This document shows positions 1,579 through 8,737 of a stretch of 64,000 nt of DNA, in pieces. The DNA comes from an uncultured Solirubrobacterales bacterium (GTDB lineage: Bacteria; Actinomycetota; Thermoleophilia; Solirubrobacterales; Solirubrobacteraceae): the NCBI GenBank assembly GCA_963792735.1, contig CAWBXK010000008.1, positions 14,306-78,305 on the forward strand. The letters are read 5' to 3'. How positions within the stretch are numbered: position 1 is the first letter of the stretch; each line of letters opens with the position of its first letter. Under the pieces are notes generated by a model. That model made no database searches. It was given only the letters and a program-made list of their open reading frames with translations, and had not been told where the DNA came from. Both the position numbers and the translations under genes were made by a program.

Positions 1579-1917
1579 TCAGCCGCTGTGCCGCGTCGGC
1601 AAGTGGAGCCGTACCGGGTAATCGACGACGATGGCGCGGCAGGCGCCAACCACGCGCGCGCCATGCCAGACAGAGGGCGGGACCACCGCGGCGTCGCGTG
1701 CCTCCAACCGGCGCTCGGTCCCGTCGATGACGAGAAGGATCGCGCCGCTGACCACGTTCCAGACCTCTTCCTGCTCGTGGTGATGTTGGTGAAGATCGGT
1801 AGCACCCGCGGCGATCTCCCACTGGCCAAACGTCATGTTGGTGGAGTGAAAGAAGCGCCCGGACCATCCGTCGAGCGGCGCGACCTCGATCATCGCCGCG
1901 GGGTCGATGAACGGCAT
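1579..1917 (-). CDS. Cupin domain protein
   Basis: Cupin motifs LHQHHHEQEEVWNVVSG and VVPPSVWHGAR. Confidence 0.85.
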   Translation of the reverse strand: MPFIDPAAMIEVAPLDGWSGRFFHSTNMTFGQWEIAAGATDLHQHHHEQEEVWNVVSGAILLVIDGTERRLEARDAAVVPPSVWHGARVVGACRAIVVDYPVRLHLPTRHSG

Positions 1918-1958: not shown

Positions 1959-2909
1959 CTAGGGGTTGCTGGGCGTCGGTTGCGCAGATGTCTCGGGAGC
2001 CGTTGCAGACTCACCAGGATGGACCACTGGCCGCTGGTAGGTGTCATAGCGAAATCGAGGTGTCATGCCGAGCTGCTCGTAGACCCTGAGGGCCCGCGGG
2101 TTGCTTGACGCGACCCCGAGCTGGGCTTCTCGGAGCCCGGCCGCGCGGAACCGACGGAACGCTTCGACGAGCAGGTTCGTCCCGATCCCGATGCGCTGGT
2201 GATCGGGATGAACGGCGAGGATGTCGACGAACCCGACCGGCGCCTCGGTCCAGCGTCGCGCCAGCAGGAAGCCGGCGATCTGGCCGCCGAGCTCGGCGAC
2301 GCGGCTCAGCTCCGGATCAAGGTCGTGGGCGCCGAGGTGCTCCTCGCGGAAGGCCTCGAGCGATTCGGGGTGGTAGTCCGGAGCGCCGGCAAAGCTGGCA
2401 GCGTCGAGCGCGTGCAGGGTGGTGGCGTCCCGCTCTACCTCGAGCGAGCGCAGTCGCAGGCCGGCTGGAGGGCTGACCGGGTAATCGCACAGGTCCTCAA
2501 GCCCGAGCCCCATCCGCCAGTAGCTGCGGTCCAGAGCGTATCCGGCGGCGCGCAGGAGCGTCTTGGCGCGCTCGTTGGCGGAGCCGATCCATTGGCGATG
2601 GTGCGAGCGGCCCAGCACGCGCTCGCGCGGCTCCACCCAATCCAGCAGCCGCGCCCCGATGCCGTGGCCCTCGTACGCGGGAGCGACGGCGACGAGCGTT
2701 CCCAGCCGGCGCACGATCGCGTACGCGACGATCCGTCCGTCCAGCTCGACCACTCGGGAATCCGCGGCGAGATCGAGGTCGCTGCCGCGCCATTCGTCGA
2801 GCAGGTCCTCCAGCACGTAGTCGGGTACGCCGATGTCGGCGATATCTCGGGCCGCGAGCACCTCGAGGACGGCGGACGCGTCGTCGATGGCGGGCGCCCG
2901 TACTCTCAT
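1959..2909 (-). CDS. Tandem GNAT acetyltransferase (MshD-like fold)
   Basis: Starts at ATG 2909 (MRVRAPAIDD) inside the 653-aa track ORF. Two GNAT motif A segments: VAVAPAYEGHGIGARLL and LAVHPDHQRIGIGTNLL. Confidence 0.85.
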   Translation of the reverse strand: MRVRAPAIDDASAVLEVLAARDIADIGVPDYVLEDLLDEWRGSDLDLAADSRVVELDGRIVAYAIVRRLGTLVAVAPAYEGHGIGARLLDWVEPRERVLGRSHHRQWIGSANERAKTLLRAAGYALDRSYWRMGLGLEDLCDYPVSPPAGLRLRSLEVERDATTLHALDAASFAGAPDYHPESLEAFREEHLGAHDLDPELSRVAELGGQIAGFLLARRWTEAPVGFVDILAVHPDHQRIGIGTNLLVEAFRRFRAAGLREAQLGVASSNPRALRVYEQLGMTPRFRYDTYQRPVVHPGESATAPETSAQPTPSNP

Positions 2910-3004
2910 TGCGGCATGTCTACCGGCTTCGCCCCGTGTCGCGCAAGGCGAACTGGTGAAACCGGGCGACCGAGGTACGAGTGTCGCTCGTGGCCACGGC
3001 GGGG

Positions 3005-3920
3005 TCAGGCGAGGTCGGCGGCCATGACCGAGCGCTGGCGGGCGGTGAGCTGTCCGAGCTGTTTGTGCTCCCCGACCGCGTGTCGGGTTAGGAAGGTCTG
3101 CGTCCGGCGGGGTCCCCAGCCGGTCTGGCTGCGCAGCAGCTCGGCGACTGTGCACCCGTCGGCAGGCGCTGAGGGCCCCTGCAGCAGATCGCGCACCGTG
3201 ACCGCGCCGTCGCCGATGTCTCGCTTGAGCGCGGCTCGTTCCCCGCGCACGGTATTGGCCAGCGTGAGCGCGGCGTGTCGCTGCCGGCTTGCCAATATCG
3301 GGGCTGTGTCCTGCCCTTCGGTGGGCGCCGGCGTCCGTTGCGGTGGCACGGGCTCCGGTGGTAGCTGCGCCAGCGCTTCGACCTCGAACCGCAGTAGTTC
3401 GATGAGGTGGGCGTCGTCGAGCTCTTGCTCGAGCATCACCAGCGACTTCTGGTAGCGATTGAACTTTTGCCTCGGCCTCGTCCGGTGGCAGACCGGTGAC
3501 GATCAGCAGTCGCAGCTCGCGGACCTTGCTGACCTTATCGGCGGCATAGACCGCCAGCGCATCCCCACCGAACGCCCGGACACGGTCACGCACCTCGGCC
3601 TTGCGCCGATCCTCGTCGCCGATCGCCGGGTCGTCGCTGACCACCGCCACCAGCTCCGCGACCCGCGAGCCAAACCTCGAGTGCAAGTCGGCCAGCTCGG
3701 CGTCGGTGTCCTCCAGAACGTCATGCAGGACAGCGGCCGTCACGACATCGTCGCCGTAGCCCAAGCGGGCCAGCAGCGACGCCACCTCCGCGGGATGGAC
3801 GAGAAACACCGCGCCATCACCACTGCGGTGCTGATCGCCGTGGCGAGACCGCGCGAACCCCAGCGCCTGCCGGGTCTTCGGCAAGTTCTCAGCGAAGTGG
3901 AAGTGCAGCGGCGAGAACAT
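3005..3920 (-). pseudogene. HD-domain hydrolase (RelA/SpoT/Mesh1-type) fused to a C-terminal actinobacterial IHF-like (H2TH) domain, interrupted by a 1-nt frameshift
   Basis: N-part has HPAEVA, AAVLHDVLEDT, FGSRVAELV and YAADKVSKVR. Removing one base from the T4 run at 3465-3468 joins it to ORF 3005..3439 (EAKFNRYQKSLVMLEQEL...ALTLANTVRGERAALKRDI...GWGPRRTQTFL...LGQLTARQR), giving about 304 aa. May be an intact gene with a sequencing indel. Confidence 0.7.
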
Positions 3921-4023
3921 CGAGGACGGAGTTGCCGCGGAGGACAGCGCATTAGCCTACAAAGTCCGTCAACTCCTGCGGAAAACCCGCCCCGCTGCAC
4001 GACGTCGAGCAGGCTGATCTGAT

Positions 4024-4720
4024 CGCGGGGGCGGGCGCGGGCACGTCCCGGTGTCGCTGAGCCGCAGCATGAACGTCGAGGTCGCCACCGGCGCGGGCCT
4101 GACCGAGGCGCTGGCGGGGGTCGATCTCGTCGTCGACGTCGCCAACGCCGGCACGACCGAGGAGGCCGCGGCCACGGCGTTCTTCACCCGCGCCGCCGGC
4201 AATCTGCAGCAGGCGGCGGCCGCGCAGGGCGTGGAGCGGATCGTGACCCTCTCGATCGTCGGGATCGACCGTGCACCGTTCGGCTACTACGCGGCCAAGC
4301 TCGCGCACGAGCAAGCGGCCCACGACGGCCCGGTCGCGTCCACCATCCTGCGCGCCACGCAATTTCACGAGTTCGCCGGGCAACTGATCGCCGCCACCCG
4401 GCGTGGCGGGACCGCCAGCGTGTTTGACCTGCGTGCAGACCGTGGCCGCCCGGACCGTCGCCGAGGCGCTCATCGACGCCTGCGAGAGCGCGCCGCAGCC
4501 GCGCGTGCCGGACCTGGGTGGCCCCGAGCCGGCCTGGCTGGTCGAGCAGGCCCGGGCGTTCGTGGCGCGGCGGGACGAGCCGATCGAGATCGTCGCCGAC
4601 AGCGGGACCATCGCTGGGCTTCCCGTCGACGCGCTGCTGCCCGGCCCCGACGCCCGGCTCGCCGGGCCGACGTTTACCCGCTGGCTGGACACCGAGGATG
4701 CGGCCGCGCTGTCCCTCTGA
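4024..4720 (+). pseudogene. NAD(P)H-binding NmrA/atypical SDR family protein, 5'-truncated and frameshifted
   Basis: GHVPVSLSRS...GAGLTEALAGVDLVVDVAN...YYAAKLAHE...TILRATQFHEF, then a frame change at about 4432 to VQTVAARTVAEAL...DLGGPE. The N-terminal GxxGxxG motif is missing (in-frame TGA at 4015). Confidence 0.7.
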
Positions 4721-4763: not shown

Positions 4764-5975
4764 TCAGAGCTGGTCGGCCACCGGCTCGCTCAGGATGATG
4801 GCTGCTGATGCCGCAATCAGGTTGATCGCCGTGAACCCGATGATCAGCGCGAGCGGGTCGTGGACGAGCCCTCCGAGCGCCGCGCCGCCGGCGATCGTCA
4901 GGCCCGACAAGCTGCTGACGGTGGTCATCACCTGGGCCCGGACCGCCGGCGGGGCGTGGCGCTGGCGGAGCGCGATCGTGCCGGAGTAGGCCGGCCCTTC
5001 GAGAAAGCCCGTCAGCCCGATGAGGGCGACACCAACCGCGAGCGTTCCGGCCAGCGGCCAGAGCAATGCCGACAGAGCGAGGATCCCGTAGGACAAGCCG
5101 ACGCGGCGCAGTCCCGGCGGGCCGTGCAGGACGAAGGTCCCGAGGATTGAACCGGCCGCCACCGCCGCCCAGAGGTATCCGCTGGTGTGCGCCGGGCTGT
5201 GCAGCGTCTGGACCGCGTAGAGAGGGAAACCGACCAGCATCAGTCCCCAGCCGAACGCGGCCATGCTGCCCGAAAAAGAGGTTGCCAGCAGCGTCCGCTC
5301 GCGCGCGAGGGCCCGCAGACCACCACGGAGCGCCTGAGTCAAGCTCGGGGAGCGGTCGCGGCCCCTGGCCTCAAAGGCGGGGTTCAGCGCCACCAGCACG
5401 GCAACGATCACGGTCAGCGCCGCCTGCAGCTCGACCGTTCGCGCAGCCCCGATCGCTCCCGCGAGCACGCCGGCCAGCGCGGGACCGATGATCACCGCCA
5501 GGTTGAGGCTGGTGGCCTCGACCGTGCTCGCCTGGTCAAGCAGCTCTGGACCGGCGATGTCGGCCAGAGCGCTGAAGAAGCTACCCGTGCTAAGCGGCCG
5601 CGTGATGCTGTACAGAGCGGCCACCGCAGGCACCGTCCAGCCTGGCGCGTGGCCGGCGAGCGCGACGATCGCCAGCAGCCCCGCGACACTCAACAGCTGG
5701 TCGAACACGATCAGCACGCGCCGGCGACGGACGACATCGAGCCACGCGCCGAGCACGGGACCGGCCAGCGCACCGGGCACGACAGCCGCCGCGGCCGTCG
5801 CTCCCGCCAACGGCGCATTTCCCGTCCGCACCAGGACCAGAAGCACCCCGGCGGTGTTGAACATCGTCGCGCTCGTCCGTGACAGGGCAACGGTCAGCAC
5901 AAACCCGGGATAGCGCGGGCGCCGCCATAGGCGGCGAAAGGCACTCTCAGAGCCGGTCAGCGGAGACGACGCCAT
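4764..5975 (-). CDS. MFS transporter
   Basis: About 12 hydrophobic segments; GAWLDVVRRRRVL resembles MFS motif A. Confidence 0.85.
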   Translation of the reverse strand: MASSPLTGSESAFRRLWRRPRYPGFVLTVALSRTSATMFNTAGVLLVLVRTGNAPLAGATAAAAVVPGALAGPVLGAWLDVVRRRRVLIVFDQLLSVAGLLAIVALAGHAPGWTVPAVAALYSITRPLSTGSFFSALADIAGPELLDQASTVEATSLNLAVIIGPALAGVLAGAIGAARTVELQAALTVIVAVLVALNPAFEARGRDRSPSLTQALRGGLRALARERTLLATSFSGSMAAFGWGLMLVGFPLYAVQTLHSPAHTSGYLWAAVAAGSILGTFVLHGPPGLRRVGLSYGILALSALLWPLAGTLAVGVALIGLTGFLEGPAYSGTIALRQRHAPPAVRAQVMTTVSSLSGLTIAGGAALGGLVHDPLALIIGFTAINLIAASAAIILSEPVADQL

Positions 5976-6076: not shown

Positions 6077-8737
6077 ATGTCCAGAGGGACGATCGGGACC
6101 GGGGCGATCCGGCGCGGGATCATCGGCGCGGGGAGCGTCTGCGCGGTGGTGGTTGCGGCCGCGTCCATGGCGGCGCCGGCCCTGGCGTCACCGCGCGCCG
6201 CTGCACCCTCGGGCGAGGCTCCGGGTGGTCCGGGCGCCACCTCCTACCTGGACGTGGCCCGCAAGGACTGTTTTGGGACGGCGCGCAACACCACGTCGAA
6301 GGTTTGGTTCACCGTGGCCGGTGGGGTGCTGTCCGACGTGTTCAGCCCGACGATCGAGAACACCAACGTGAGCACCGTTCAGTACATCGTCACCGACGGG
6401 CGCACGTTCGCCGACCTGCAGCAGCGGGACATGACCTACTCGGTGAGCTCGCCGGATCCGAGCGGCATGGTCTGCCGGGTGACGAGCATTGACCGCGCTC
6501 ACCGCTTCCGTCTGGTCAGTGACTACGTCGCCGATCCGGCGCGTGACAGCGTCGTCATCCACACGACGCTGATGCCGATCGGCGGGGGCGTGCGCTCGGT
6601 CCGCAAGCTCAAGGTCTACGTCCGCTATGACGCCACCATCGACAACACGGGCGGCGGCGGCGCGGCCAATGGAGGCCCCAACAACGCCACCATCGATCCG
6701 GCGACGACGGCTCTGGTCTCCTCCGACACCACCACTCCGACCGGTCCGTTCTCGGCGCAGGTCGTCGGCGCGCTGGTGGCCGATCACCGCTTCCGGACGG
6801 AGTCCAGCGGGTTCGTCGGCAGCGCCAACGACGGCCTGAACCAGCTCGATGCCCGCCACCGCCTCGTCGCCGAGTACCGCTCGGCGGTCGACGGGAACGT
6901 CGTTCAGACGGCCCGCGTGGCTATGAAGCCGGGACGGCCGTTCACGCTCGCGCTGGGATTCGCGCCGGACGCCCCCGGGGCGATCGCCGCGGCCAGGGGC
7001 AGCGCCGCGGCGCCGTTTGCGCGGACGCTGGGGCAGTATGTGGCCGGCTGGCGCAGCTACGACGCCGCTCTGCGCCGCCCACCGCGGCGCCTGGCCGGGC
7101 TCACCGACGCCCAGAACGCCGCGATGAAGAGCACCTACTGGGTGTCGGCGAACGTCATCAAGGCCGCCGAGGACAAGACGAACATCGGGGCGTTCGTGGC
7201 CTCACCGACCGACCCGTGGGGCCAGTCGGTTCCGGCCGCCACCACGCACGCCGGGTGGACCTACCGGGAGGTGTTCGCCCGTGACAGCTACGAGACGTTC
7301 ACCGGCCTGCTCGCCGACGGCGACACGGCCAGCGCCAGGGACATGACCCTGTTCCTGTTCGACCGCGTCCAGCAGCCCGACGGGAGCTTCCCCCGCGACT
7401 CCGAGCTCGACGGCACGGTCGCCCCCGACACGTTCGGGCTATCGGAGATCGACGAGGTCGCCTACCCGCTGCTGATGGCGTGGGAGGCCGGGCTGGCCGG
7501 GAACGTGGCCCTCTACCGGGACCACATCCGGCCGGCGGCGGATTACATCGTCGACCACGGCCCGAGCACAGGCGCCGAGCGCTGGGAGGAGCATCCGGGG
7601 TTCTCGCCGGCGACGATCGCGTCGGAGATAGCGGGCCTGGTGGCGGCGGGCAAGCTGGCCACCGCGGCCGGCGATACTCCGCGCGCCCATCTGTACCTTG
7701 CCACCGCCGACTACTACCAGCGCAACGTCAAGCGCTGGACGGTGACCACGACCGGTCCCGACGGGCCCCGGTACTTCATCCGCGAGTCGGTCGACGGCCA
7801 CCCCAACACGGCACAGACCTACGACCTCGGCAACGGCAGCCTCAGCCACGTCGACCAGCGCTCGATCATCGACGCCGGCTTCCTGGAGCTGACACGGATG
7901 GGCGAGCTGTCCGCGCGCGATCCCGACGTCCGGGCATCGCTGCGCGTTGTCGACTCCGTGCTGAAGCGCCAGACCAGGTCGGGCCCCGGCTGGCACCGCT
8001 ATGGGATCAAGGCCCCCGGCGCCACCGACGGCTACGGAGACTGCTACATGCCGGATCCGACCACCTGCGCGCCGACGGGCGAGCCGTGGTTCACGCACGC
8101 GGTCGGCTCCGGTCACCTGTGGCCGCTGCTCACCGGCGAGCGCGCCGAGCAGGACCTCCAGTCGGGCGCCAAAGCTGCCGCTTCCGGCTTGGCGGTCGAT
8201 TTCCAGCGGATGACCTGGGGCTTGGGATACGTGCCCGAGCAGGCGTGGGAGGACCCTGACACACCGGCGTCGCCGTTCGGAGCGGACCCCACCACCGCCT
8301 CGATCGGCTTCAGCAACGGCCAGGCCGCCGGCTCCGCTACCCCGTTGATCTGGGGCCAGGCGCAGTACCTGAGGCTGGTGCTCGACCTCCAGTCCGGCAC
8401 TCTGATCGATCAGCCGCAGATCACCCGCGCCCGGTATCTGGGGCCGGCGGCGCCGGCGGACGTGCCGGTGGCGATCACTTCGCCGGCCAACGGCGCGACC
8501 GTGAGCGGCGCCAGCACGGTCGTGACCGGGACGACGAAGCCGGGGGCACGAGTGGACGTGGCCGCCGGTCAGCCGGGATCTCCGGCGAACGCCACCGCCG
8601 TGGTGGCGACCGTCGCCGACTCCCACGGTGCGTACGCGGCCACGATCCCGACTCCCTCCGCGACGACGATCATCACCGTGGCGGCCACGGTCGGCGCGCA
8701 GGCCACGGGCTGGGCTCAGGAATCGGTGACGGGCTAA
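6077..8737 (+). CDS. Secreted glucodextranase/glucoamylase (GH15)
   Basis: GGGAGGAG RBS before ATG 6077; signal peptide; SKVWFTVAGGVLSDVF (glucodextranase N domain), YREVFARD, ERWEE, GHLWPLLTGER, YVPEQAWE. Confidence 0.88.
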   Translation: MSRGTIGTGAIRRGIIGAGSVCAVVVAAASMAAPALASPRAAAPSGEAPGGPGATSYLDVARKDCFGTARNTTSKVWFTVAGGVLSDVFSPTIENTNVSTVQYIVTDGRTFADLQQRDMTYSVSSPDPSGMVCRVTSIDRAHRFRLVSDYVADPARDSVVIHTTLMPIGGGVRSVRKLKVYVRYDATIDNTGGGGAANGGPNNATIDPATTALVSSDTTTPTGPFSAQVVGALVADHRFRTESSGFVGSANDGLNQLDARHRLVAEYRSAVDGNVVQTARVAMKPGRPFTLALGFAPDAPGAIAAARGSAAAPFARTLGQYVAGWRSYDAALRRPPRRLAGLTDAQNAAMKSTYWVSANVIKAAEDKTNIGAFVASPTDPWGQSVPAATTHAGWTYREVFARDSYETFTGLLADGDTASARDMTLFLFDRVQQPDGSFPRDSELDGTVAPDTFGLSEIDEVAYPLLMAWEAGLAGNVALYRDHIRPAADYIVDHGPSTGAERWEEHPGFSPATIASEIAGLVAAGKLATAAGDTPRAHLYLATADYYQRNVKRWTVTTTGPDGPRYFIRESVDGHPNTAQTYDLGNGSLSHVDQRSIIDAGFLELTRMGELSARDPDVRASLRVVDSVLKRQTRSGPGWHRYGIKAPGATDGYGDCYMPDPTTCAPTGEPWFTHAVGSGHLWPLLTGERAEQDLQSGAKAAASGLAVDFQRMTWGLGYVPEQAWEDPDTPASPFGADPTTASIGFSNGQAAGSATPLIWGQAQYLRLVLDLQSGTLIDQPQITRARYLGPAAPADVPVAITSPANGATVSGASTVVTGTTKPGARVDVAAGQPGSPANATAVVATVADSHGAYAATIPTPSATTIITVAATVGAQATGWAQESVTG

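Follow-up and report, generated by a model that had tools for sequence, protein, structure and literature searches.

The window analysed here is a stretch of 64,000 nucleotides from contig CAWBXK010000008.1 of an uncultured Solirubrobacterales bacterium. Near its start, on the minus strand, it carries an interrupted gene (3005-3920) that comprises 304 codons when one extra base is skipped, with an ATG at 3920-3918 and a stop at 3007-3005. The read-through product consists of a small alarmone hydrolase (SAH) domain, a proline-rich linker and a C-terminal domain resembling the actinobacterial IHF. We consider it probable that this is a lineage-specific two-domain protein, in which the IHF-like domain would tether a Mesh1/RelH-like hydrolase to nucleic acid, and that a single base interrupts the copy found in the window.

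Starting from the ATG at 3920, frame A of the minus strand reads MFSPLHFHFAENLPKTRQALGFARSRHGDQHRSGDGAVFLVHP...AAVLHDVLEDT...AVYAADKVSKVRELRLLIVTGLPPDEAEAK. After the switch, frame B continues with FNRYQKSLVMLEQELDDAHLIELLRFEVEALAQLPPEP..., a proline-rich stretch and ...RQRHAALTLANTVRGERAALKRDI...CTVAELLRSQTGWGPRRTQTFLTRHAVGEHKQLGQLTARQRSVMAADLA up to the stop, and also contains ...FNRYQKSLVMLEQEL...ADLA just before it. The switch occurs at GCAAAAG, at codon 151/152, with one surplus base in or beside an A4 run (3464-3468), which reads as T4 at 3465-3468 on the plus strand. In a DNA alignment of three loci (L016, L017 and L018), the window has one more base than two intact relatives (GCAAAAGTTC versus GC-GAAGTTC), and a Viterbi segmentation of the genome based on codon usage independently placed a same-strand frame switch at 3464/3465. 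The surplus base corresponds to codon 152, inside the hydrolase domain and ahead of its last two helices (residues 146-184 in the structural model). A preliminary description of this DNA had proposed that an extra base in the T4 run separates the two parts of the protein; the alignment confirmed the extra base, but its position within the hydrolase domain showed that the two parts are not divided there. Of note, frame A remains open for 653 codons (1959-3920, minus strand), running in frame through the downstream gene, which encodes a two-domain GNAT acetyltransferase (1962-2918). This 653-aa open reading frame (ORF) is an artefact, a spurious HD-GNAT fusion that a gene caller could annotate.

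The hydrolase domain covers residues ~8-185 (3365-3899) and spans the frameshift, as seen from Pfam, TIGR00691, PDB and Foldseek matches. Frame A matched the Pfam family HD_4 (PF13328) with a score of 56.7 bits (cut-off 27.2; E-value 3e-15), and the match was also above cut-off in the scan of the genome. The N-terminal hydrolase region of TIGR00691 (spoT_relA) was matched with an E-value of 2e-19, while the Pfam scan of the protein gave no RelA_SpoT match, that is, no synthetase domain. Among solved structures, the hydrolase domain is best matched by Lmo0812, by Mesh1 of human and fly, and by hydrolase domains of Rel proteins. An AlphaFold2 model of an intact relative (P0004) had a predicted local distance difference test (pLDDT) score of 91.3 and showed two helical domains. 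With this model, Foldseek aligned residues ~8-185 to Mesh1, RelH(Cg), a Leptospira SAH, Lmo0812 and PaSAH at template modelling (TM) scores of 0.77-0.82 (0.77-0.81 for the first three); the fold match covers six solved SAHs over ~170-183 aligned columns.

The motifs HD1 to HD6 of these enzymes have defined roles, with the HD1 arginine stacking on the base and the HD6 asparagine contacting the guanine (PMC9293644). In the window protein, HD1 R32 (aligned with R24 of Mesh1), HD2 H42-P43, HD3 H66-D67, HD4 E70-D71 and HD5 D128-K129 are all present. The metal ligands and the catalytic pair of HD2 to HD5 align with those of Mesh1 and Lmo0812 in HMMER alignments and vary little or not at all in our multiple alignment (A1), including the HD3/HD4 motif H66-D67-V-L-E70-D71 (3708-3725), which contributes metal ligands and the catalytic Glu-Asp pair. 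In the HD5/HD6 region, A127-D128-K129-V-S-K132 (3525-3542), HMMER alignments revealed a lysine (K132, 3525-3527) in place of the guanine-contacting asparagine that is found in Mesh1 (ADKLYN), in Lmo0812 (ADKLDN) and also in RelH. Both the characterized SAHs and the hydrolases of Rel enzymes carry this asparagine. The same HD6 lysine, within the subfamily motif A-D-K-V-S-K-V-R-E-L-R, was seen in 118 of the 120 closest homologues, both fused and stand-alone. A RelH mutant with leucine for the HD6 asparagine is among those listed as inactive (PMC9293644). Judged by its sequence, the hydrolase belongs to a distinct SAH subfamily with an HD6 lysine, and its base preference is not to be assumed.

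Residues 186-207 form a flexible, proline-rich linker of ~22 residues (3299-3364), which is variable in the multiple alignment and has a pLDDT of 56-73 over residues ~186-210 of the P0004 model. The IHF-like domain occupies residues 208-304 (3008-3298) and consists of a long helix followed by a four-helix core of the helix-two-turn-helix (H2TH) type. The NCBIfam model NF041260 (actino_IHF) aligned with the C-terminal 97 residues over positions 5-100 of 102 (44 bits, E-value 2.5e-11). A profile of the nine fused C-termini matched sIHF (4ITQ, E-value 8e-7) and mIHF (6TOB, E-value 5e-6) over the whole length. The AlphaFold2 model of the window's own C-terminal 99 residues reached a pLDDT of 96, and its top folds were sIHF, in the DNA-bound structure 6bek_A and in 4itq_A (TM scores of 0.84-0.86, root-mean-square deviation of 1.7-1.8 Å, 88-89 columns), followed by mIHF (6tob). 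sIHF holds the DNA backbone as a monomer via its H2TH and R-Q-R elements (PMC3627587). The parts of the window domain that match the DNA-contacting parts of sIHF lie at 3032-3154 and comprise the H2TH turns (G267-W268-G269-P-R-R-T), the "lid" (V-G-E-H-K-Q-L-G-Q-L-T) and the R-Q-R at the start of the last helix; the G-x-G of the H2TH, the arginine that follows it and the R-Q-R motif are all kept with respect to sIHF and mIHF. The preliminary description had recognized RelA/SpoT/Mesh1-type HD motifs in the N-terminal part and likened the C-terminal part to mIHF/sIHF. Both assignments are borne out, the first by motifs HD1 to HD5 and the HD_4 match, and the second by the sequence profile and the predicted fold.

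The fusion is not confined to a reconstructed protein. The 304-aa read-through product aligned without gaps with at least eight intact proteins of 267-344 aa, 73-80% identical to it, from at least six metagenome assemblies. The full-length relatives P0003-P0008 have 301-344 aa and share 75-80% identity with the read-through product; P0009 and P0010 have a shorter N-terminus, yet contain both domains. The alignment of the relatives is gap-free across the frameshift position of the window protein (...AKFDRYRASLAMLEQEL...), and their genes are single ORFs in JGI assemblies 3300037139, 3300014501, 3300037237 and 3300055138 and ENA assemblies ERZ27248477, ERZ25039458 and ERZ27256462. The genes flanking the fused relatives are unrelated and different in every assembly, and no conserved neighbourhood was found across the assemblies compared. 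The presence of an intact fused frame in at least eight relatives with differing neighbour genes indicates that the join is not an operon artefact. Homologues with the architecture proposed in the preliminary description, and not only separate genes for the two parts, are thus found intact in several independent assemblies. That description knew of no published account of such an architecture, and we found none in the literature for the combination of an SAH with an IHF-like domain, both domains being of known kinds.

Two other accounts were considered. The first, that of two separate genes, was rejected, as it does not agree with the single ORFs of the relatives, in which the frame-B ORF has no start independent of the hydrolase. 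The second, an origin by merger of neighbouring genes, found no support around the closest stand-alone members: no hydrolase precedes the closest stand-alone IHF-like gene (P0128), and the gene after the closest stand-alone hydrolase (G022) is unrelated.

To assess the distribution of the fusion, genomes and large protein sets were searched. Most other homologues are stand-alone proteins of ~200 aa, ending just past the "...LRFE.EAL.QLPP" helix. Among 346 species genomes of the genus, both halves were found only in the window's genome, while 28 others carry orthologues (46-66% identity) of the hydrolase part alone (residues ~3-193); the orthologue that was read, G022, has 206 aa and ends after the hydrolase domain. 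The fusion is absent from 24 genomes of other families in the order. A search with the C-terminal region in a set of 5.8 billion proteins, covering proteins of 167-532 aa, returned the same fused clade only. Scans of genome contigs with the IHF-like domain gave one distant match, in a metagenome-assembled genome of an uncultured Thermoleophilia (36% identity), and no fusion in a named organism. In a set of 1.84 billion representative proteins, P0004 was the only representative cluster joining an IHF-like domain to a hydrolase, apart from P0123, a 120-aa protein that starts in the linker and resembles a fragment of the same fused protein. As far as sequence comparison goes, the fusion is young and narrow, limited to one shallow clade. 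A further fused relative (P0013), located on a 12-kb ENA metagenome contig, leaves the reading frame twice and regains it each time: once over the region of the H-P metal ligand, and once beginning immediately behind T-G-L-P-P, a few codons away from the lesion of the window gene. Either its assembly is laden with indels or this copy, too, is decaying.

Selection on the fused genes was evaluated by pairwise Nei-Gojobori estimates of the ratio of nonsynonymous to synonymous substitution rates (dN/dS) for five genes, with a dS of 0.2-0.9 over both domains. The ratio was 0.09-0.15 in the hydrolase domain and 0.17-0.49 in the IHF-like domain, and it rose to 0.2-0.97, near neutral, in the linker. 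The low values in the two domains indicate that both are maintained by purifying selection.

The genome of the window contains three IHF-like sequences. Besides the fused domain, these are a canonical IHF gene on contig C3 (114 aa, 69 bits), immediately upstream of the guanylate kinase gene gmk, and a free paralogue on contig C4 (C4:625943-626221, or 1444-1845 of locus L002; 133 aa). A profile search of the 1.84 billion representative proteins gave 3,036 relatives at an E-value of 1e-3 or below, of which 547 were at 1e-10 or below. The best relatives are free proteins of ~100-135 aa and tandem proteins of ~220-340 aa. The four tandem proteins whose sequences were inspected begin with a canonical-like domain, followed by one of the fused type, and Pfam recognized H2TH_5 solely in their N-terminal part. 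The class is marked by the motifs E-L-L-x-S-Q-x-x-W-G and L-T-x-R-Q-R, whose W, G, Q, T and RQR residues show a conservation of 90% or more among 97 sequences. By its sequence, the fused domain belongs to this paralogue class and not to the gmk-linked housekeeping IHF. The class is large and apparently unnamed, and it occurs stand-alone, in tandem and fused; its tandem "double IHF" proteins range from 220 to 440 aa (e.g., P0124, P0126, P0130 and P0131).

The following mechanism could be proposed for the intact protein. The N-terminal domain would be a Mn2+-type SAH with its metal ligands and Glu-Asp pair kept, predicted to act as a 3'-pyrophosphohydrolase. The flexible proline-rich tether would join it to a C-terminal sIHF/mIHF fold made of the long helix, the H2TH core and the lid. 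Most likely, the IHF-like domain would hold the hydrolase on double-stranded nucleic acid, namely the nucleoid, where it would locally hydrolyse nucleotides of the (p)ppGpp/(p)ppApp type made by the single long Rel of the organism. This long Rel is the sole alarmone synthetase of the genome, and the genome scan found no small alarmone synthetase (SAS) and no other SAH. Bacterial SAHs are dimers (PMC9293644), so the protein could carry two DNA-binding modules.

Several points weigh against tethering of an alarmone hydrolase to DNA, including some of those that feed the alternatives discussed below. The 60-bit cut-off of NF041260 was reached neither by the window domain, with its 44 bits, nor by the eight fused relatives (35-55 bits). 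As the HD6 lysine occurs in the whole subfamily, the substrate is uncertain and may not be (p)ppGpp. The presence of the fusion in one of 346 genus genomes indicates that it is dispensable for most relatives, and the gene of the present genome may no longer be functional. For every member of the clade, a DNA-tethered hydrolase is a function that we infer from sequences and structural models.

One alternative is directed to RNA. The IHF-like/H2TH domain could recruit RNA, such as tRNA or the ribosome, as does uS13, and the hydrolase could trim a 3' pyrophosphate from nucleic-acid ends, thereby countering toxSAS-type toxins of phages or neighbours. SAHs can indeed dephosphorylate tRNA 3' ends, as MESH1 and ATfaRel strip the 3' pyrophosphate put on tRNA by FaRel2 (bioRxiv 10.1101/2021.04.30.441581), which makes an RNA-directed role a live alternative. 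In the fold ranking, the matches after sIHF and mIHF were partial ones to ribosomal uS13 and to the H2TH domains of topoisomerase VI-B. The same set, uS13 and the topoisomerase VI-B H2TH domain included, was reported as the structural neighbours of sIHF itself (PMC3627587). Pfam gave no match in the C-terminal domain of the window protein, and its "S13-like" family H2TH_5 matched weakly in four of the nine fused members. The change of the HD6 asparagine to lysine would also fit a substrate other than free (p)ppGpp. However, the uS13 matches cover ~50 columns at TM scores of 0.4-0.5, compared with the full-length match to sIHF, and neither SAS nor toxSAS is encoded in the genome. Moreover, the HD6 lysine is common to more than 100 stand-alone relatives that have no nucleic-acid-binding domain, and is therefore not tied to the fusion. 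We consider this role unlikely. A combined view, in which a tethered RelA/SpoT homologue hydrolase with base recognition altered by the HD6 lysine either clears alarmones at the chromosome or acts on 3'-(pyro)phosphorylated nucleic-acid ends, is put forward as a tentative and rather doubtful possibility.

Another alternative is that the C-terminal domain binds no nucleic acid and serves as an oligomerization, partner-binding or autoinhibitory module. The lid is less basic than that of sIHF (E-H-K-Q-L-G versus E-S-R-R-V-R-G), and the net charge of the fused domain is +6, against +12 for the housekeeping IHF of the same genome. In addition, a possible role in protein contacts was suggested for the conserved N-terminal helix of sIHF by the authors of its structure (PMC3627587). 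Such a role nevertheless appears quite improbable, as the 97 paralogues all conserve the H2TH turn, the arginine next to it and the R-Q-R motif, and a floppy, near-neutral linker is better in keeping with a separate, tethered module than with a docked regulator.

Regarding the copy in the window, assembly error and real mutation are about evenly matched as explanations of the extra base. If the base is real, both domains would be lost, since codon 152 precedes the last two helices of the hydrolase. The gene would then be a very recent pseudogene, with a frame A devoid of these helices and of the IHF-like domain, an account to which we give an even chance. The contig is not generally indel-ridden, with 4.4 frameshift-like junctions per 100 kb compared with 5.0 in a closed control genome scored identically. 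A divergently oriented neighbour (3960-4717, plus strand), encoding an NAD_binding_10/NmrA-like protein, looks truly decayed when compared with an intact 262-aa orthologue (G008, L061): ~12 codons are missing after the GxxGxxG (Rossmann) motif, the frame changes near 4030-4040 and a second time, outside any homopolymer, near 4430 (CTGCGTGCAG), and no start codon of the ordinary kind could be seen. Loss of the fused gene might also be tolerated, the long Rel having its own hydrolase domain. On the other hand, the window copy differs privately at two of the 126 sites that are identical in the other eight, a count that is the joint-lowest of the nine, and its dN/dS against the relatives is not raised. 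The lesion moreover sits in a homopolymer, and homopolymers are classic sites of consensus errors.

This homopolymer insertion in an otherwise pristine sequence would speak for an error of assembly or consensus, in which case the organism would make the uninterrupted 304-aa fusion protein. This 11-contig assembly is not free of indel errors, as indicated by a 300-kb stretch of contig C3 in which the mean coding segment is 85 codons long, compared with 256 in the rest of the contig, and the metagenomic relative P0013 also loses and regains its reading frame. Conversely, the window's contig shows no surplus of frameshift-like junctions, and we rate the probability of an error as just short of even. 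Genome-wide, no enrichment of homopolymers was found at frameshift-like junctions, which does not discriminate between error and mutation. The short-segment stretch (bases 1-300000 of C3) accounts for 241 of the 443 frameshift-like junctions of the genome and has a slightly higher G+C content (0.71-0.73); it looks like a poorly polished consensus or a mis-joined piece in an otherwise clean assembly.

Programmed +1 frameshifting would also restore the protein. A tRNA-Lys could slip from AAA to AAG before GTT, a codon expected to be rare at 70% G+C. The geometry is suitable, as GCA AAA G TTC would be read as ...A-K-F..., with the residues found in the relatives. Nevertheless, the intact relatives all lack the extra base, which means that the site is not conserved, and neither a stop nor a known stimulator is present, making programmed slippage extremely improbable.

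The characterized SAHs, i.e., Mesh1 (3NR1, 5VXA and 3NQW), RelH of C. glutamicum (7QOC and 7QOD), the L. levettii SAH (7QOE) and Lmo0812 (4YF1), have the same HD_4 fold and domain size as the N-terminal half of the window protein. Like them, it has the HD1-HD5 motifs and no synthetase domain; unlike them, it has the HD6 lysine for asparagine and an additional IHF-like domain at the C-terminus, the literature describing SAHs as proteins of a single domain (PMC3153485). The C-terminal half shares with sIHF (SCO1480; 4ITQ and 6BEK) and mIHF (6TOB) an end-to-end fold match, the conserved G-x-G, the next arginine and the (D/A)RQR. It differs from them in not being adjacent to gmk, in being fused to an enzyme rather than existing as a free protein of ~105 aa, in scoring below the family cut-off, in its less basic lid and in belonging to the S-Q-x-x-W-G / L-T-x-R-Q-R class. 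The stand-alone and tandem IHF-like paralogues from metagenomes of the Thermoleophilia type, exemplified by C4:625943-626221 of the window's own genome (133 aa), P0128 (110 aa) and the tandem proteins P0124, P0126 and P0131, are of the same subtype and share 39-52% identity with the fused domain. Unlike the window protein, they are either free or joined to a canonical IHF-like first domain, and none carries a hydrolase.

SAHs are treated as free single-domain enzymes, and their regulation is poorly understood. A natural fusion to a nucleoid-protein fold, under purifying selection in several lineages, leads to a testable hypothesis, that hydrolysis of alarmones or related 3' pyrophosphates may be localized on nucleic acid, for which the fusion protein provides a ready-made construct. 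Both the paralogue class of IHF-like proteins and the SAH subfamily with an HD6 lysine are missed by domain databases.

Rfam, promoter and terminator scans of the region 2700-4300 found nothing relevant. No link to alarmone metabolism was seen in the other neighbours of the gene in the window, which are ordinary genes encoding a glucodextranase/GH15-like protein (6080-8734, plus strand), an MFS transporter (4767-5975, minus strand) and a cupin (1582-1917, minus strand).

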